Below, piece by piece: positions 3,708 through 51,500 of a DNA stretch of 51,500 bases; the stretch's first letter is position 1; each line of letters opens with the position of its first letter. The notes beneath the pieces are model-generated. The model saw only the letters and a program-made list of their open reading frames with translations. It was not told the DNA's origin and did not search any database. The DNA lies in the IMG/VR virus record IMGVR_UViG_3300021446_000092, positions 1 through 51,500 of that record, one strand, 5' to 3'. Source of the DNA: a virus. A program made the position numbers and the translations under genes.

Positions 3708-4643
3708 CTACTCTACGATGCGGATTTCTGCGGCGTCCCGCTCCCCGAGTAGCTCGGCCACCATCCGGCTGTCCCGCGTCTCGCTCCCGCCGTCCTCGCC
3801 GTCCGCGCTGGAGCCGCCAGCCGCGGCGTCCGTGTCCTCGGCTTCCTCCGGGTCGAAGTCCGAATCGTCCGGGGCCTCGTCCGGGTCGAAGTGCCCGCGC
3901 TCCAGATCCTCCATAATCTCCTCGATGAGGTCACGGAGGAAGTCCGGCAGGTCCGGCGTCTCCGGGATGACCTCACGGAGACGGTCCACGACTTCGTGGG
4001 CCATCTCCTCGCGGCGGTCCGGGTCCTGGGTCTGCTTGACTTGCTCCGCCAGCGGGGCAATGTCCATCAGCGCCTCGCGGACTTCCGGGTCGGCGTCGTT
4101 GATGCCCTTGACTCTGCCCGCGAACGCGAGTTGAGTGAATCCCTCGACGGCCTGCTTCCGCGGCGGGATCTCACTCATCGGCGGGCGCATCTCATCGTCC
4201 TCCATGAGGCTCTGAATCGCCCAGTTGTGGACCTTCTTGAGTCCGCGGTACTTCCGGTGCCGGTTGTAGTCGATGTAGTTGTCCTCCAGAATGTTCATCG
4301 CCATTCCGGCGAGCTTCGCGTAGCCGTCGTCGTGTTGCTCCATGAACTCCCGCTTGCCCTCGATTTTGGAGTCGTTGTGGTGCTGAACCTCGTGGGAAAG
4401 CGTGTCCACGAGGAGCCGGAGCGCGTGCGCGCCGGTCGCGTCGTGGTACTTCCACGGCGCGTTCACGTCGAGGTAGACCGCGCGGGTCCCGTCCGGATCC
4501 GTATTGGCGTGGGCCGTCTCATCCGTCCAGCGGACTTCGATGGGGCCGTCGTCGCCGTCGTAGTAGTTCTGCGCGAGGTTCGTCAGGAGCCGCTTCAGGG
4601 CCTTGCTCTGTTCCAGCGCGTCGTCGGGTTTGGTATCGCTCAT
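3708..4643 (-). CDS. HExxH zinc metallopeptidase-like protein
   Basis: 311 aa with motif SHEVQHH and an acidic C-terminus. The ATG directly follows a cassette. Its neighbour is a vWA protein, resembling split DUF2201-type peptidase+vWA proteins. Confidence 0.85.
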   Translation of the reverse strand: MSDTKPDDALEQSKALKRLLTNLAQNYYDGDDGPIEVRWTDETAHANTDPDGTRAVYLDVNAPWKYHDATGAHALRLLVDTLSHEVQHHNDSKIEGKREFMEQHDDGYAKLAGMAMNILEDNYIDYNRHRKYRGLKKVHNWAIQSLMEDDEMRPPMSEIPPRKQAVEGFTQLAFAGRVKGINDADPEVREALMDIAPLAEQVKQTQDPDRREEMAHEVVDRLREVIPETPDLPDFLRDLIEEIMEDLERGHFDPDEAPDDSDFDPEEAEDTDAAAGGSSADGEDGGSETRDSRMVAELLGERDAAEIRIVE

Positions 4644-8194: not shown

Positions 8195-9125
8195 CATCGC
8201 GTGGGATAACATCGCGTGGGGGCGTGTCGCCGCGCTGGCGATGATCCCCATCGTGCTGTTCTCCAGCATCGGGCTGGTGTTTGCCTACCACCAGGTCCCT
8301 GAGGGCCACGTCGGCGTGGAGACCGAGTGGGGAGCCGTCACCGGGAACGTCGATGACCCGGGCGCGGAGTGGAAGGTCCCGTTCATGCAGGGGATTCAGG
8401 ACGTGGAGACGCGACCGCGGACGTACACGATGTCGCAAACCACCGGGGAAGGCGACAAATCCCGGGCGGACGCCATCTCGGTCAAGACGGTCAACGGGAC
8501 GACCGTCAAGGTTGACGTGACCATCCGTTACCGGATCAACGACAGCGAGGCGGATGAGTTCGTTGAGGACTGGAACAACGAGCGGCAGATGGAAAAGCGG
8601 CTTATCCGGCCGACCATCCGCTCCGAGCTACGCGACGAAGCGAGCGACATCCAGACGACCGGCGGGAGCGGTATCTACACCCGGCAGGGCCGGGAGGCGC
8701 TGGCGACTACGGCCCGGACCGCGCTGGAGAGCGAGTTTGCGGATGAGCCAATCGTGCTGGAGCAGGTCCAGATCCGGAACATCGACCTTCCGGACCAAAT
8801 CGACGCCACGCTGGACGAAAAGGAACAGGCGAAACAGCAGGTCGAAGTGGAGCAAGAGCGGATCCGGCAGGAGGAAGCCCGCGCAGAGCAGGCACGGGTC
8901 GAGGCCCAGGGTGAAGCGGACGTTATCGCAACCCGCGGCGAGGCCCTGAGCGAGAACCGCATCGTCCTGAAGGCCCGGCAGATAGAGGCGTACGACTCCG
9001 GGACCGTGTTCGTCACCGAAGGCGGACAGGAGATAATCCTTGACGGCTCCGGCGCGGCTGAGGGCAACACGGACGGGAACGAGACGAACAGCACGGTCCC
9101 CGCGTCCCCGGGGGCGGGAGCATGA
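8187..9125 (+). CDS. SPFH/band-7 (prohibitin/stomatin-like) membrane protein
   Basis: N-terminal TM segment, then VPEGHVGVETEWGAV...ISVKTVNGTTVKVDVTIRYRI...IRNIDLPDQI, followed by a charged coiled coil. Confidence 0.9.
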   Translation: MSNIAWDNIAWGRVAALAMIPIVLFSSIGLVFAYHQVPEGHVGVETEWGAVTGNVDDPGAEWKVPFMQGIQDVETRPRTYTMSQTTGEGDKSRADAISVKTVNGTTVKVDVTIRYRINDSEADEFVEDWNNERQMEKRLIRPTIRSELRDEASDIQTTGGSGIYTRQGREALATTARTALESEFADEPIVLEQVQIRNIDLPDQIDATLDEKEQAKQQVEVEQERIRQEEARAEQARVEAQGEADVIATRGEALSENRIVLKARQIEAYDSGTVFVTEGGQEIILDGSGAAEGNTDGNETNSTVPASPGAGA

Positions 9126-9606: not shown

Positions 9607-9618
9607 CCGCGGGGGACT

Positions 9619-9685
9619 CTCCCCCGTCGCCCCAGACTCGCGGAGGGGCCTGATGAGCCGGGTGAGGTCCGGCGAAACGGAGGAC
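9619..9685 (+). ncRNA. Candidate type III hammerhead ribozyme
   Basis: Stem III 9620-9627 / 9677-9684. GUC cleavage triplet 9626-9628. Stem I GCCCC(9629-9633)/GGGGC(9645-9649). CUGAUGA 9650-9656. Stem II GCCGG(9657-9661)/CCGGC(9669-9673). GAAA 9674-9677. Confidence 0.7.
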
Positions 9686-9695
9686 GACACCAACT

Positions 9696-17097: not shown

Positions 17098-17147
17098 CCG
17101 GAGCGCCGAACCGGGGCGTCAGGCCCCAACACTATTATGCACACAGG

Positions 17148-17217
17148 TATTTGCTTGAAGCAAACTTTTATTACCCTATACCTGCAAGTATAGAGTGTAA
17201 TGGAGGTGAAAAACAGT
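17148..17217 (+). promoter_or_regulatory. Divergent copy of the promoter + leader cassette
   Basis: tatttgcttgaagcaaacttttattaccctatacctgcaagtatagagtgtaatggaggtgaaaaacagt-ATG. The TATA/BRE-like part is conserved and the leader 3' part diverges (GGAGGTGA). Confidence 0.7.
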
Positions 17218-17508
17218 ATGGAACACAAAGTCCACCGCGACGTGTCGGACGAGGAAAAGCGTCTCTGGTCGGAGTTTCAGGACGCGCTCGAAGCCTCAGA
17301 CTTCGAGAAGGTTTCCGTGACCGAGGTCGCCGTCCAGCGGGTCGGGATCCACGAGACGCGGTCGCGGCAAATCGTCTCCACGTGGGAGAACGAGGGGCTG
17401 GTCATTTCCGGAGGGGCCGGGTCGTATGACCACGCCGCGCTAACCGAGTACGGCCGGCAGGTGGACAGCATCGTTTCGACCAACACGGGCGGCGAGTCCT
17501 GGCGTTAG
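17218..17508 (+). CDS. Winged-helix-like DNA-binding protein (96 aa)
   Basis: MEHKVHRD...VSVTEVAVQRVGIHETRSRQIVSTWENEGLVIS resembles an HTH/wHTH regulator. Confidence 0.8.
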   Translation: MEHKVHRDVSDEEKRLWSEFQDALEASDFEKVSVTEVAVQRVGIHETRSRQIVSTWENEGLVISGGAGSYDHAALTEYGRQVDSIVSTNTGGESWR

Positions 17509-17586
17509 GACTCCCCCCGTTCTGCGGCGGGCCTGATGGGACGGCCCGGGGTTCGACTCCCCGGCAGGCCCCTCCCCGTCCGGGAG
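17508..17586 (+). ncRNA. tRNA-like minihelix element (acceptor-like stem + T-arm) followed by a small hairpin
   Basis: GGGCCUG(17529-35)/CAGGCCC(17565-71). CCGGGG(17546-51)-UUCGACU-CCCCGG(17559-64). CUCCC(17572-76)/GGGAG(17582-86). No D or anticodon arms. Confidence 0.5.
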
Positions 17587-17616
17587 CGCCCCGGGCGGAC
17601 CAAGGAGCTAAGAGCT

Positions 17617-17850
17617 ATGATAACAGACACCAACGGTATGGCGACAGAACCAGAGTCGAAACGCGGGCTGACGGACCCGGAAGTCCGGCAGGTATCGCAA
17701 CAGACCGCGCTGGAGGAAGGCGATGGGTCGTTCCAGCCGACCCTCGTGGAGTGCCCCGCGTGCGAGCGCGACGGGACCACGACAGAGGAAACGAACGTGT
17801 GCCTGGGGTGCGGCGCGTGGTTCCTCGTCACCCCCGGAGGGGACCAATGA
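17617..17850 (+). CDS. Zinc-ribbon protein (77 aa)
   Basis: ATG 17617 behind GGAGC. ECPACERDG...CLGCGAWF. Confidence 0.7.
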   Translation: MITDTNGMATEPESKRGLTDPEVRQVSQQTALEEGDGSFQPTLVECPACERDGTTTEETNVCLGCGAWFLVTPGGDQ

Positions 17851-18206
17851 GCGACCAGCCTGCCTACGAACCGGCGGATCTGCCGGAGGAAACTGCCGTG
17901 GAGATAGCGGTGGGCCGGGACGGGACGAACGACCCGTCCGCGGTGGGCGTAGTCATCGGCCGCTGGGAGTGGAAGTCAATGCAGAAGCGCAAGACCGCGG
18001 AGTGGAGCATCGACGGCGTGGAGGTCAAGGTCGTGCAGGGTGTGGACGACCAAGCGTTGATGACGACGGGGCCGGTCCGGGATCCGGACCTGTTGGAGCT
18101 ACGGCTGACGGACGAGCAAGTCACCACGCTCCGGGACAGCGGCGTGGCACGGTTCGACGCCTCCGGGACGTTCCCGTTCCCCGTGACGGTGGTGCGCCGT
18201 GACTGA
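17847..18206 (+). CDS. Hypothetical protein (119 aa)
   Basis: ATGA-coupled (MSDQPAYEP) with acidic composition. Confidence 0.75.
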   Translation: MSDQPAYEPADLPEETAVEIAVGRDGTNDPSAVGVVIGRWEWKSMQKRKTAEWSIDGVEVKVVQGVDDQALMTTGPVRDPDLLELRLTDEQVTTLRDSGVARFDASGTFPFPVTVVRRD

Positions 18207-18336
18207 AACAGCGAGCGCGGACTGCCCCGGGGAGTGGTGCCCGGGGAAGTGGCCCGAGGACGGCGAGAGCCTGTCGTGCTGGCCGTGCTACCGGGAGCGG
18301 GAGCAACTGCCCGCGGTGCCGAGGTGGTTCCCGTGA
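18199..18336 (+). CDS. Possible Cys-rich small protein (45 aa)
   Basis: GTG start overlapping the previous stop. MTETASADCPGEWCPGKWPEDGESLSCWPCYRE.... Confidence 0.35.
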   Translation: MTETASADCPGEWCPGKWPEDGESLSCWPCYREREQLPAVPRWFP

Positions 18337-18419
18337 GCCACGCAGAGGCGCTTCTGTTCTGGGTCGCGCTCCTGATGCTGGCGTACCTGTGGGCGGGGAT
18401 GTACGTCGCGGTCAGATGA
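18333..18419 (+). CDS. Possible 28-aa hydrophobic peptide
   Basis: GTGA-coupled. SHAEALLFWVALLMLAYLWAGMYVAVR. Confidence 0.25.
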   Translation: MSHAEALLFWVALLMLAYLWAGMYVAVR

Positions 18420-19407
18420 TACGGAAGCCGACTGCCGTCGTGAACCGCGTGTCCTCGGTTTTCTTGAACGAGTCGAAAGTCCCCCGCCACACCAGCGAGC
18501 CGGTGTTGTCAAACACGCCTACCTCCGTGTAGTCGTAGGGCTGACCGGACGGTTCATGCTCGAACTGGGGTGCAGAAACGGTGATTACCTCCAGGTCAAG
18601 GTCGCGCTGTGCAGGTTTCCGTAGTACCTCGTTCTCCAGAGCGGTGTCGCTCCCCGCTGGATCTGTCCCGCCGGTCCCCCACGCCAGTTCCTCCAGCCCG
18701 ACGACGGTGGACTCCAGTTGGAGCGCGTCCGCGACGGCGCTCTTACCGTCGTCCGTGACGACGCTGGAGCCAGTCCCGTCGCCATCGACACGGACCGTGA
18801 GGTCAACGCGGACTTCCTTTTCGATGGACGGCGACTGGATGGTGGTTGTCGTCCGGGAGAGTAGCCGCCCAGTCGAGTCGAACAGGCCATACTCGGCCAC
18901 TTCACCGGAGTCGCCGACCGCGGAAAAGCGGAGGCTTCCGCGGCCGCGGACCTCGTTGAACGCTTCGCCAGCCCGCAGGCCGTAGGCGAAGGTCCGTCCC
19001 GTCTCTGCGTCCAGTCCCGCGTCGGCCGGAGACGGCTCCCCCGTCCCACCGCCTATCGCTATCTCGGCCAGCGCGCCGTCCTGTCCGTTGAGCGTGTCCC
19101 TGACAGCGTTCCGGCCGGCGCGGGTCCACTCGGTCGCGGTTATCTCCGCGCCAATGAGCGTCCAGTCTCCGCGCTGGTCGCCGGAGACGCCGTGCCCGCT
19201 CCCGTGCCGGTCGCCGTTCGGGTGTCCGGAGACGAGGGCGTTGTTCAGGTCCCGCGTGTAGACTTCGACCTTGGCGACGGCCGGCCGGATCCCGTTCCGG
19301 CCGAACACGAGGTTCTGGTCCCGGCGGTCCGGGACCGTCACGAACCGTCCGTCGATTTTGGACACGTCGCGCCGGTTCTCGGCCACTTGGTCCTGTATCC
19401 GGGGCAT
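18412..19407 (-). CDS. Tail/baseplate-associated structural protein (331 aa)
   Basis: ATG 19407 (MPRIQDQ), 2 nt after the upstream stop. Last gene of the minus-strand tail module. The function is assigned by position. Confidence 0.85.
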   Translation of the reverse strand: MPRIQDQVAENRRDVSKIDGRFVTVPDRRDQNLVFGRNGIRPAVAKVEVYTRDLNNALVSGHPNGDRHGSGHGVSGDQRGDWTLIGAEITATEWTRAGRNAVRDTLNGQDGALAEIAIGGGTGEPSPADAGLDAETGRTFAYGLRAGEAFNEVRGRGSLRFSAVGDSGEVAEYGLFDSTGRLLSRTTTTIQSPSIEKEVRVDLTVRVDGDGTGSSVVTDDGKSAVADALQLESTVVGLEELAWGTGGTDPAGSDTALENEVLRKPAQRDLDLEVITVSAPQFEHEPSGQPYDYTEVGVFDNTGSLVWRGTFDSFKKTEDTRFTTAVGFRII

Positions 19408-26089: not shown

Positions 26090-26631
26090 TCGCCACCTCC
26101 GGACGGCTCCCGCGGCGGCAGGTCCTCCGCGGAGTCGAACCACTCGATGCTCCCGGACTGGAGAAGCGTCCCGCGGTCGCTCGCTTCGTCGCGGATGATG
26201 CGCTGGGACTCCCGGAACATCCCGTTGACAACCTCCGCGAGGATCTTCTGGTTCGCTTCAGGGTCCTCGCTCCCGGCGTAGCTGGAGACGACTGACGGGG
26301 CCTTGTCCTTCCCCTTCTCCAGCGCCCGGTTGCCGAAGTACACGCCGTCGGTTCCGTTCTCGTAGATGGACCATTGGACCAGCCGGGCGACCCCCTCCAC
26401 GGTGTTGTCGCCGGCTTCCTTCAGCCCGGCGTCCAGATCCCCCCACTTCCGGTCCACCCAGTCGAGGAGGGGCTGAAGCGGGGGCGGACTGCCGGCGTAG
26501 GAGGTTGGAAACTCCACGTACTGCGCGTAGTTCACGGAGTAGTTTATCATCGCGGCTCCCTCCATGTCCTCCAGCAGTTCCTCCGCCTCGAACGCTCCGG
26601 TCCGCGTCCGGACGGTTCCCTTCTGCGGCAT
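26086..26631 (-). CDS. HK97 gp10-like head-tail joining protein
   Basis: NYAQYVEFPTSYAG resembles the gp10-family YAxxVEfGT motif. TGATG-coupled. Confidence 0.85.
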   Translation of the reverse strand: MPQKGTVRTRTGAFEAEELLEDMEGAAMINYSVNYAQYVEFPTSYAGSPPPLQPLLDWVDRKWGDLDAGLKEAGDNTVEGVARLVQWSIYENGTDGVYFGNRALEKGKDKAPSVVSSYAGSEDPEANQKILAEVVNGMFRESQRIIRDEASDRGTLLQSGSIEWFDSAEDLPPREPSGGGE

Positions 26632-50404: not shown

Positions 50405-50700
50405 CAGGCCGCCCCCGCTACCGGACCTTCGTCGGGGTACTCGCTAATATCCCGGTCCGAGCAGGGGCCGCACCACCGCGCCGTCGGGGCCGGCTCCCCC
50501 ATCACGTTTACCTGCATACACTCGTCCGGGACCTGTTCCGACTCCGGGCGGCAGGCGACGTGCCACTCTCCGTGGAAGATGTTCACGCCACAGTCTTCAC
50601 ATTCTCCGGTTGGGTCAGGATCCGCGGCGTCACCGTCTGGTTCCTCATCCGTTGACCCAGGGGTGAACTCGTGTTCACAGGACGGGCACGTTACCGTCAT
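50404..50700 (-). CDS. Zinc-binding acidic protein (98 aa)
   Basis: CPSCEHEF...CEDCG...CGPC. Confidence 0.7.
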   Translation of the reverse strand: MTVTCPSCEHEFTPGSTDEEPDGDAADPDPTGECEDCGVNIFHGEWHVACRPESEQVPDECMQVNVMGEPAPTARWCGPCSDRDISEYPDEGPVAGAA

Positions 50701-51047
50701 TATGCGCTCCCTCCCGTCTCTACTACGTCACCGAGAACGTCGTGCTGGTCGGCGAGGCTCCGGATAGTTTCCTCTACCTCTGCGGCCGCCTCGACCTCGC
50801 CGTCGTCGAGCAGGACTTCGCGGTACACCGTCAGCGACGCCACGCCGCGGACCGCGTTCATCTCCCGGACCGTCACCGGGTCGTCCTCGTGTCCCTCGTT
50901 GAGGGAGCGGCGGAACGCCTCCACCTGCTGTGAGTCGTTGTCCAGCCCGCCCGCGAGCAGGAAGCCGCGGGCTTGGTCCAGCGCGGCGCGGAGCGTGCGC
51001 CGTTTGTCCGGGTCCAGTTCTATCTGTAGCTCGTCGTCTGGTGCCAT
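50700..51047 (-). CDS. Acidic helical hypothetical protein (115 aa)
   Basis: First gene after the tRNA-like spacer; the ATG at 51047 lies behind GGGAGGGAGG. Confidence 0.75.
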   Translation of the reverse strand: MAPDDELQIELDPDKRRTLRAALDQARGFLLAGGLDNDSQQVEAFRRSLNEGHEDDPVTVREMNAVRGVASLTVYREVLLDDGEVEAAAEVEETIRSLADQHDVLGDVVETGGSA

Positions 51048-51061
51048 GTGCAGTAGCCTCC

Positions 51062-51122
51062 CTCCCAGGTCGCCCCGGGAGAAGCCCCGCCGTGGAGTCG
51101 AACCACGGGCCGCCGCTCGGGG
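51062..51122 (-). ncRNA. Second tRNA-like minihelix element + hairpin (minus strand)
   Basis: The minus strand reads CCCCG-agcggcggc-CCGUGG-UUCGACU-CCACGG-CGGGG, then CUCCC...GGGAG. Same architecture and T-loop as 17529-17586. Confidence 0.45.
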
Positions 51123-51146
51123 TGCCGCAGGTGGTTGTGTGCGTTG

Positions 51147-51473
51147 CTACTCCGTCAAGACGAGCGGGTCGCTCGCGCTCCAGGGGCCGCCCGTATCGGA
51201 AGCCCCGTAGTGGTCGCGGGCGAGGTTGTGCATCCACTCGGAGAGGATGCCGCGGCTGATCCCGAGGTCGTCGGCCCAATCGGACAGTTCGTAGCCGGCG
51301 GAGTCGCGGAGGACCACGAGGTTGTCCGTCTCGGCCAGCTTCTCGATGTGTTCCTCGGCCACGTAGTCCTCGACTGAGAGCGAGGCGGAGCTGAGGTCGA
51401 TACCGTTTTCGGTGAGGCGCGCGCCGTCGTCGGTGCTGTTCTCGGTTGCGTCGTAGGCGTCAGTAGCGTTCAT
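51147..51473 (-). CDS. Acidic hypothetical protein (108 aa), cassette-driven
   Basis: ATG 51473 (MNATDAYDATE) directly follows ctcaagttcacc.... C-terminal LGISRGILSEWMHNLAR is HTH-like. Confidence 0.8.
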   Translation of the reverse strand: MNATDAYDATENSTDDGARLTENGIDLSSASLSVEDYVAEEHIEKLAETDNLVVLRDSAGYELSDWADDLGISRGILSEWMHNLARDHYGASDTGGPWSASDPLVLTE

Positions 51474-51500
51474 CTCAAGTTCACCTTCTACACTCAACTC
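51474..51500 (-). promoter_or_regulatory. Leader part of the promoter cassette, cut by the window end
   Basis: Identical to nt 1-27. Confidence 0.7.

Follow-up and report, generated by a model that had tools for sequence, protein, structure and literature searches.

A tRNA-like minihelix between cistrons of a haloarchaeal virus belongs to a widespread family of viral RNA elements and may be a signal for processing of polycistronic mRNA

What is the role of a tRNA-like minihelix located between two protein-coding genes of a virus? The question is raised by a 51,500-nucleotide (nt) stretch of DNA from IMG/VR record IMGVR_UViG_3300021446_000092 (here referred to as the window, to which all coordinates without a prefix refer), which represents a haloarchaeal tailed virus distantly related to HHTV-2. 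In one of its intercistronic spacers (17509-17616) lies an element, hereafter element A (17529-17571, plus strand), in which an acceptor-like helix is stacked on a T-arm, and a first-pass annotation, made from the letters of the DNA alone, had suggested that it directs the tRNA-processing enzymes of the host to the transcript. We report that element A, judged by structure-model scores and orthologous copies, is a member of a conserved, widespread and unannotated viral family that is present in both archaeal and bacterial viruses. Moreover, on balance we favour the view that element A is a t-element that would recruit RNase P and tRNase Z to cut the polycistronic viral mRNA.

The pairings proposed by the first-pass annotation are present where it had placed them (Table 1). 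Specifically, the seven base pairs (bp) of the outer helix and the six of the T stem share an unbroken 3' strand, giving a 13-bp coaxial stack, and the isolated 44-mer of element A folds exactly into the 7-bp helix, the bulge and the T-arm. The T-loop fits the consensus T54-Psi55-C56-R57-A58-N59-Y60 with the closing pair G53-C61. The location on the sense strand between cistrons was likewise borne out, the co-directional open reading frames (ORFs) ending at 17508 and beginning at 17617, respectively. For the sequence just 3' of the element the outcome was mixed: CUCCC (17572-17576) is able to pair with GGGAG (17582-17586), which is the hairpin of the annotation, but RNAfold prefers a longer hairpin at 17576-17598. 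The 44-mer has a folding-energy z-score of -1.0 and the entire spacer one of 0.03 (the window is 65-80% GC), and since these energies are close to those of shuffled sequences we do not use thermodynamics as evidence for element A. Its significance derives instead from the T-loop signature, the structure-model scores and the orthologous copies, of which the latter two exclude, on comparative grounds, a chance origin.

The family was recovered by scanning IMG/VR with the bare T-arm (CCGNGGTTCGACTCCNCGG) as bait, which gave at least 118 loci. Among the matches listed, ARAGORN calls tRNAs at only about ten, dozens share the mini-architecture, and the genomes range from 34% to 73% GC; the identical 19-nt T-arm recurs across very different genomes. 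A covariance model, R1, was built from 12 sequences of equal length, element A and eleven diverse copies from IMG/VR, and matches 52 copies in 83 sources (IMG/VR loci), with two or three copies in several loci. The score of element A itself, 56.5 bits, is circular because it is among the 12 seed sequences of R1, but a second copy in the window (element B; E-value ~4e-8), a copy in a relative of the window (L120) and the HHTV-2 copy score significantly without being in the seed. The next match in the window after elements A and B reaches 18.7 bits.

Pairing was assessed in an alignment of 47 distinct sequences, fitted to R1, in which 91.8% of the paired cells are able to pair, compared with 69.6% after shuffling and 36-57% when the partners were slid. 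Changes on both sides were found for all seven outer-helix pairs (7/7) and for three T-stem pairs, and T-stem pair 4 covaries across the family (G:C, C:G and U:A). The outer helix lies outside the bait, and its covariation is visible by eye, with variants such as GCAAG/CUUGC, CCCUU/AAGGG, CCCCG/CGGGG, GUGCGAG/CUCGCAC and GCGCGUG/CACGCGC.

The alignment also defines the anatomy of the family. The outer helix comprises 5-7 bp, most often six, and 30 of 46 copies lack the first pair of the model. The bulge is 9-12 nt long with the consensus A/G-N-Y-G-G-Y-N3-5, where the GG is present in nearly all members, and it resembles the tRNA D-loop (A14-R15-Y16-G18-G19) without a D stem, a character that the first-pass annotation had overlooked. 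The T-arm consists of a 6-bp stem and a UUCGACU loop in which every T-loop consensus position is kept. By analogy with tRNA structure, the GG can be expected to dock on the T-loop in the manner of G18 and G19 and so form an elbow. Judged from this consensus, the element is one that keeps the elbow requirements and an acceptor/T stack of 11-13 bp and drops the D stem and the anticodon arm. On its 3' side the 6-bp helix is followed by U in 23, C in 18 and A in 10 copies, and never by G; 32 of 51 copies have U at the position after that, and the trailer is U-rich. A small stable hairpin, often with a GNRA loop, follows 0-4 nt 3' of the element in ~60% of 58 distinct copies, with a mean z-score for this downstream hairpin of -1.46 compared with -0.38 for upstream controls.

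The second copy in the window had likewise escaped the first-pass annotation. The window contains the T-loop signature GGTTCRANTCC at three positions (0.52 expected) and only two T-loop hairpins with 6-bp stems, at 17546-17564 (plus strand; element A) and 51090-51108 (minus strand; element B). The third signature, at 26131, falls within a coding region, on a stem of 4 bp that includes a G-U pair, and is probably a chance occurrence. Relative to element A, the T stem of element B carries a compensatory G:C to U:A change. Element B is located in a spacer between the co-directional minus-strand ORFs 51147-51497 and 50700-51047 and is 94-96% identical over ~50 nt to the copies in SH1 and in HCIV-1 (IMG/VR locus L002; R1 42.6 bits), with unrelated flanking genes.

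Do relatives of the window carry the element at the same position? Single-protein scans of IMG/VR with the flanking genes gave no relatives, and homologs of these genes were taken from the protein database instead. In L120 the same element is positioned 3' of the homologous gene (UGGCCUG-AGUGGACGGC-T-arm-CAGGCC; R1 52.8 bits) and is followed by a different but equally stable hairpin, and L121 has a divergent copy in front of the homologous gene rather than after it. The window genes 17847-18495 are collinear with HHTV-2 gp56-54, and the HHTV-2 copy is situated at an equivalent boundary two genes upstream, with an outer helix (CCCCG/CGGGG) that is wholly different from that of element A. Hence in both L120 and HHTV-2 the pairing is kept while the sequence changes, which is the conservation that the annotation had named as a check.

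The genomic context was read in 30 distinct loci of low or mid GC, in which the calling of ORFs is straightforward (e.g. L007). At 30 of 30 the element is on the same strand as the neighbouring genes. In most cases the stop codon of the upstream gene precedes the element by 0-30 nt, sometimes overlapping its first bases, and in most the next start codon follows after 28-45 nt, behind a GGAGG; a same-strand ORF spans the element at only one. Moreover, a BLAST search with two haloarchaeal copies against deposited phage genomes matched 178 records (by organism name Streptomyces 65, Halorubrum 31, Mycobacterium 26, Haloarcula 15, and others), and at nearly all of the matches listed no feature is annotated. 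Seven of these viruses were confirmed with the structure model, using the records' own gene tables for context, and all of the confirmed copies in cultured viruses are intergenic, on the sense strand and without annotation (Table 1). The two copies in Streptomyces phage Izzy bracket an HNH endonuclease gene just 3' of an Ocr-like anti-restriction gene, which recalls the hammerheads around ardA in Agrobacterium (PMC3088659).

Two further copies were noted in other surroundings. In L126 a minihelix (L126 2420-2465, minus strand) lies directly upstream of two genuine tRNA genes (L126 2319-2384 and 2203-2273, minus strand), all on one strand, so that a single transcript would join it to true RNase P and tRNase Z substrates. 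In Halorubrum sp. CBA1125 contig246 (L123) a minihelix (L123 3184-3225, plus strand) is found ~85 nt upstream of a gene for a Tat-signal secreted protein; the gene upstream is divergent and there are no obvious viral genes nearby in the 6-kb contig.

Table 1. Positions of the minihelix elements and associated features in the window and in cultured viruses; positions in other genomes carry the name of the virus
Feature	Position	Strand	Evidence or remark
Element A, outer (acceptor-like) helix, 5' strand GGGCCUG	17529-17535	+	Pairs with 17565-17571
Element A, bulge AUGGGACGGC, 10 nt, D-loop-like, carries the conserved GG	17536-17545	+	Sequence, family consensus
Element A, T-arm: 6-bp stem CCGGGG/CCCCGG, loop UUCGACU	17546-17564	+	G-C closes the loop
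Element A, outer helix, 3' strand CAGGCCC	17565-17571	+	Runs straight on from the T stem
Discriminator-like C	17572	+	C17571 would be the discriminator under a 12-bp ruler
Hairpin CCGUCCGGG-AGCGC-CCCGGGCGG just 3' of element A	17576-17598	+	RNAfold -19.3 kcal/mol, z -3.2
Upstream ORF, 102 amino acids, stop codon 17506-17508	17200-17508	+	"wHTH" of the first-pass annotation; 9 homologs, 65-73% identity
Downstream ORF, 77 amino acids, CxxC...CxxC, GGAG at 17604-17607 ahead of the start codon	17617-17850	+	Sequence
Element B, outer helix CCCCG/CGGGG, bulge AGCGGCGGC, T-arm CCGUGG-UUCGACU-CCACGG	51083-51124	-	R1 46.5 bits
Hairpin UCUCCCGGG-GCGA-CCUGGGAGG 3' of element B	51061-51082	-	-16.6 kcal/mol, z -2.7
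Type III hammerhead ribozyme in another intercistronic spacer	9611-9689	+	Rfam Hammerhead_3 35.2 bits (gathering score 48.5)
SH1, one copy	SH1, between ORF54 and ORF53	sense	R1 42.9 bits
HF2, two copies in the early operon	HF2 2904-2946 and 4374-4415	sense	R1 56.4 and 31.7 bits
HHTV-2, one copy	HHTV-2, between gp58 and gp57	sense	R1 50.5 bits
HRTV-27, two copies, each beginning at a stop codon		sense	R1 44.6 and 39.3 bits
Mycobacterium phage Fowlmouth, one copy	Fowlmouth, between gp52 and gp53	sense	R1 42.6 bits
Streptomyces phage Izzy (L143), two copies	Izzy 703-746 and 1267-1310	sense	R1 33.7 and 19.9 bits

Does the minihelix share its place with other RNA elements? Another spacer of the window carries an element (9611-9689) that has the hammerhead core, three stems and a cleavable NUH, and hammerheads with compensatory substitutions in stems I and III are present in the orthologous spacers of HHTV-2, L136, L138, L139 and L140. 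A second model, R2, built from five halovirus copies (the one in the window and four of the orthologs), gives 102.7 bits for the window hammerhead, which is circular as it is in the seed, and 68-78 bits for copies outside the seed. That the Rfam score is below threshold fits with the salt-adapted variants reported from salterns and from HF1/HF2 (PMC3088659), and by these comparisons the element is a genuine type III hammerhead.

Minihelices and hammerheads also occur together in other genomes. In six loci (L007, L010, L018, L020, L051 and L099) the minihelix is preceded on its own strand, at a distance of 270-900 nt, by a type II hammerhead above the Rfam threshold, and in L006 one is present on the minihelix strand several kb away; in L127 minihelix, hammerhead, minihelix and hammerhead alternate on one strand. 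Specifically, a minihelix stands before the L018 gene encoding MNRLEEAKKAF..., and a type II hammerhead (35.7 bits) before the ortholog of this gene in L074, the two genes being 77% identical. Minihelix and hammerhead can, by this comparison, be exchanged at a gene boundary, the evidence being direct for one orthologous pair so far.

With respect to the hammerheads themselves, the loops AnACUCGCGGA and GUGAGGU of the window ribozyme are nearly invariant, which suggests a loop-loop contact, and the 3' strand of its stem III, GGAGG, is located 11 nt before the next start codon. The L140 hammerhead (L140 2156-2235, plus strand) is complete (R2 78.4 bits) and has one extra A in its core (CC-a-UGAUGAG); the insertion resembles the saltern insertion variants, and the metagenome caller began an ORF at the ATG thus created. 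A further observation is an HDV-like (hepatitis delta virus-like) match in an intercistronic spacer of L119, a relative of the window virus (L119 508-581, plus strand; HDV-F-prausnitzii model 38.6 bits, gathering score 44), which would add another type of cleavage module, the third, to this lineage.

How might the minihelix act? RNase P and tRNase Z accept acceptor/T minihelices as well as t-elements. In the scheme that we propose, elements A and B would be viral t-elements corresponding to the top half of a tRNA, i.e. an acceptor-like helix stacked on a T-arm over 11-13 bp, transcribed within a polycistronic mRNA. The GG of the bulge would dock on the T-loop to generate a tRNA elbow, and the tRNA-maturation enzymes of the host would recognise elbow and helix. 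RNase P would then cut at the base of the 5' helix strand, at 17528/29 given a 13-bp stack or at 17529/30 given the 6 + 6 bp typical of the family, and tRNase Z after the discriminator, at 17572/73 or 17571/72, respectively; the first-pass annotation had predicted the sites that fit the 13-bp stack, and these may be off by one. The cuts would separate the upstream cistron from the downstream ones and release a minihelix RNA of ~43-45 nt, and the downstream mRNA would start with a protective hairpin just ahead of the GGAG and the start codon. In this way the element would be an enzyme-dependent functional counterpart of the hammerheads in equivalent spacers of the same viruses and their relatives.

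Several lines of evidence are consistent with this scheme. Element A has the coaxial helix and T-arm, the T-loop and GG, and the place between co-directional cistrons that characterise a t-element, and in Haloferax both RNase P and tRNase Z cleave t-elements in vivo (PMC4326828). Among Rfam families the closest resemblance is to mascRNA, a known RNase P and RNase Z product, and this, the tRNA genes next to the L126 minihelix and the U-rich trailer that never begins with G are all consistent with the action of tRNA enzymes. HF2 makes long primary transcripts, which appear to undergo processing, and yields short RNAs on Northern blots (PMC8707807). For the wider proposition, that this conserved RNA family acts as "punctuation" of polycistronic mRNAs in archaeal and bacterial viruses and is exchangeable with hammerhead, and perhaps HDV-like, ribozymes, we judge the chances to be about even.

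The following observations weigh against cleavage by tRNA enzymes or limit the force of the comparative data. The intercistronic location, the co-occurrence and the L018/L074 swap lend strong comparative support to the annotation's view of the element as a processing signal on a par with the hammerhead spacer, but cleavage itself is purely inferred, here and for every family member. The spacers after the homologous gene in L119 and L122 are devoid of the element, which is consequently dispensable at this position. The minimum free energy fold of the 112-nt spacer is a different structure, with an energy equal to that of shuffled sequences. The alignment used for counting pairs was fitted to the model, and the conservation of the T-arm is in part a matter of ascertainment, as the T-arm was the search bait. 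Within the helices G-U pairs outnumber A-C mismatches (12 versus 7), counts that alone are no proof of which strand acts as RNA. Finally, the helix length varies from 11 to 13 bp, hence the element does not follow a strict 12-bp ruler.

What else could maintain such a structure between genes? Of the alternatives, the one that survives best, albeit as an unlikely one in our judgement, is that the minihelix is not cut and is either a folded module of the mRNA or a released small RNA that binds tRNA-binding factors. As such it might block 3' exonucleases or insulate one cistron from the next, or act as a decoy or recruiter of proteins that read the elbow, with the CCA-adding enzyme, TruB/TrmA-type modifiers, EF-Tu or tRNA-targeting defence nucleases as candidate partners. 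The elbow features (T-loop and GG bulge) are the most conserved, beyond the needs of a mere helix, copies of the element B type are 94-96% identical across unrelated gene contexts, the Izzy copies adjoin anti-restriction and HNH genes, and stable hairpins accompany the element, all of which would fit such a role. This alternative leaves unexplained, however, why a ribozyme is present at the same place before orthologous genes and why the two alternate in spacers, and there is no anticodon-like part for anticodon nucleases to act upon. Moreover, since the family spans archaea and bacteria, a factor restricted to one domain (e.g. SmpB) cannot be the target.

An improbable alternative is that selection acts on the DNA, where ~50 nt of homology at gene boundaries would promote cassette recombination between viruses and the RNA structure would be secondary. 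It would account for the near-identical element amid unrelated genes in the window, SH1 and HCIV-1, for an element that comes and goes at orthologous positions and for the identical 19-nt T-arm in very different genomes. The compensatory substitutions by which the outer helix changes argue instead for selection on pairing and not on sequence identity; furthermore, the orientation always follows the transcribed strand, and the asymmetry of the T-loop is meaningless in duplex DNA. Recombination of this kind is compatible with cleavage by RNase P and tRNase Z and does not exclude it.

We give very little credence to the idea that element A is the core of a phage attachment site (attP), or the relic of a 3' half of a host tRNA or transfer-messenger RNA (tmRNA), used in integration. 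Haloviruses do carry tRNA-like attP sites (e.g. HrrHF2_450 in HF2; PMC8707807), and attP fragments usually hold a T-arm and the 3' acceptor strand. An exact scan with the 25 nt comprising T-arm and 3' strand against the genomes of 185,579 species, which detects exact matches only, found no tRNA gene, and its sole match was another minihelix, in Halorubrum sp. CBA1125. In addition, a matching and covarying 5' strand is present 10 nt upstream, which an att fragment does not need, the two window copies are inverted, different in sequence and located deep inside operons, and SH1, a protein-primed lytic virus, still carries the element.

That element A is part of a genuine but odd tRNA gene has next to no chance of being correct and was rejected: ARAGORN reports an 86-nt tRNA-Arg(UCU) at 17487-17572 (plus strand), but its 5' acceptor strand GGGCGGC pairs with only four of the seven bases of CAGGCCC, its 5' part coincides with the final codons and stop of the upstream ORF, there is no Rfam RF00005 match at the gathering score or at E<=10 (only tRNA-Sec, 14.5 bits, E 5.5), and the relatives conserve the compact 43-nt fold and not a cloverleaf, so that the call is spurious. 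The annotation's reading of an acceptor/T minihelix rather than a full tRNA accordingly stands, with the architecture present and no tRNA match in Rfam. ARAGORN also calls tRNAs at a few other minihelix copies (e.g. L009 and L026), which are thus a source of false annotation.

The element could also not be assigned to known RNA families. With mascRNA-menRNA (RF01684) element A scores 22.8 bits and the L099 copy 34.8 bits, below the gathering score of 42.5. Element A has CUGAUGG in place of the hammerhead core (A9 is G) and its spacer contains no GAAA; there is no Rfam hammerhead match at 17300-17800 and no plus-strand match of R2 at element A. ARAGORN reports no tmRNA, and element A has no tag domain, a G:C pair at 3:70 and no CCA. 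The family is not in Rfam 15, nothing in the window reaches a gathering score, and neither RAGATH nor any other Rfam family covers the element in 29 related loci. No description of the family was found in the literature searched (including a search for the literal T-arm sequence), where most subscription journals are outside the coverage and a prior description is possible. As a kind, tRNA-like processing signals are known (t-elements and mascRNA), and the present family is apparently undescribed.

The first-pass annotation had also suggested that the minihelix and hammerhead spacers derive from one ancestral processing element. The similarity of the flanks is real: compared with the flank of element A, the segment 9614-9657 has a chained local score of 36.5, which is the best of 2052 window tiles (next 31, mean 16.1, standard deviation 3.2), and the similarity comprises three collinear blocks (GGACUC-CCCCCGU, CUGCGG and GGGCCUGAUG.G.CGG). 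For homology of the elements themselves the comparison gives no support. The last block overlaps the helix-end and bulge consensus of the minihelix family itself (G-AUGG), and L120, the ortholog, has CUGAGUGG in its place; R2 detects no hammerhead on the plus strand at 17508-17545; and the cores of minihelix and hammerhead are structurally unrelated folds. HHTV-2 has a similar C-rich start (GGCUCCCC) in both its spacers, which suggests that the spacers may share a scaffold or exchange flanks. Common ancestry of the two kinds of spacer is weakly supported.

A further idea, which is speculation, is that the C-rich 5' flank pairs as an anti-Shine-Dalgarno sequence with the GGAG ahead of the start codon, which cleavage would free. 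Pairing between the C-rich flank and the GGAG appears in the constrained fold of element A and resembles hammerhead stem III, but it is inconsistent in HHTV-2, SH1 and HF2.

How does the minihelix family compare with known systems? The t-elements described upstream of 5S rRNA in Haloferax volcanii, predicted in other haloarchaea and known from plant mitochondria likewise have a tRNA-like fold within a longer transcript and define the ends of neighbouring RNAs, and those in Haloferax are also processed in vivo beside CRISPR RNA (PMC4326828). They are cellular or organellar, few and individually diverse, whereas the minihelix family is viral, conserved in sequence and found in viruses of two domains of life; it differs also in being strictly located between protein-coding cistrons, in its stem-less D-loop bulge, in lacking an anticodon arm and in being exchangeable with ribozymes. 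In mascRNA/MEN-beta (RF01684) it is the acceptor stem and T-arm of element A that align, over the full model. This vertebrate nuclear RNA, which RNase P and RNase Z release from a long transcript, retains small arms of D-like and anticodon-like type and has no evolutionary link to the minihelix. The tRNA-like domain of tmRNA likewise has an acceptor helix and T-arm, a UUCGACU-type loop and a stem-less D-loop analogue with GG, but the minihelix has no mRNA-like domain, pseudoknots, G3:U70 or encoded CCA; the hosts of the archaeal viruses that carry it are not known to have tmRNA. In the early genes of coliphage T7, RNase III hairpins between cistrons allow a host endonuclease to cut the polycistronic mRNA and leave stable ends, and here enzyme, fold and taxonomic range all differ from those of the minihelix.

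The hammerheads of prophages and haloviruses occupy the same niche, i.e. spacers in operons of small genes, often with several per genome and flanking single genes, and the prophage ones cut polycistronic RNA in vitro (PMC3088659). A hammerhead cuts itself, whereas the minihelix, being without a hammerhead core, would need host enzymes; also the chemistry of the ends would differ, with 5'-phosphate and 3'-hydroxyl for the minihelix as opposed to 5'-hydroxyl and 2',3'-cyclic phosphate for the hammerhead. The role of self-cleaving ribozymes in phages and prophages has been open since 2011 (PMC3088659), and a review still describes it so (PMC6765202). That a tRNA mimic shares spacers with the hammerhead and replaces it in one pair suggests that what is selected is an intercistronic cut in the mRNA, a task for which viruses have at least two interchangeable means. 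If true, selection would maintain phage ribozymes simply for intercistronic cleavage, and the 45-nt minihelix, once released, might also persist as a stable small RNA with its own function, e.g. as an elbow decoy.

The proposed cleavage could explain how long halovirus primary transcripts are converted to the short RNAs seen on Northern blots (PMC8707807). Many deposited virus genomes would gain an RNA feature so far missing from their annotation. The family also points to one origin of false ARAGORN tRNA calls and might provide a compact natural part of ~45 nt for RNA processing based on RNase P and tRNase Z in synthetic archaeal and bacterial operons. The idea is testable in existing cultured systems (HF2, SH1, HHTV-2, HCIV-1, mycobacteriophage Fowlmouth and the Streptomyces BD-type phages). 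Its interest lies in the cross-domain spread, the exchange with ribozymes and the testability in cultured virus-host pairs.

Some additional features were observed in the spacers. Low-GC phages of gut type have a third conserved spacer element, CCGCCGCAGAGGAUGCC(C/A)GCCGGA..ACCGGCGGCGG followed by UUUU, for which Rfam gives no match; it is present in L051 (~4590-4640, minus strand), L099 (~8860-8910, plus strand), L075 and L018, where it occupies the spacer that follows the gene flanked by the minihelix. A terminator with a conserved internal loop is one possible identity, and a further processing motif another.

In the window, neither of the ORFs flanking element A has a Pfam match, and the label of the upstream one as a winged helix-turn-helix (wHTH) gene is unverified. 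Its last codons and stop codon form, together with the first bases of the spacer, a hairpin (GAGUCCUG-GCGU-UAGGACUC; 17494-17513, plus strand), and the L120 ortholog keeps a 7-bp version of it (GAGUCUU/AAGGCUC) with compensatory changes. Finally, an AT-rich stretch (17140-17200, plus strand) has TTTTATTA ~25-30 nt before the start of this ORF and resembles an archaeal TATA box; such a candidate promoter would give a leaderless or short-leader transcript and fits the first-pass description of the ORF as the first cistron.

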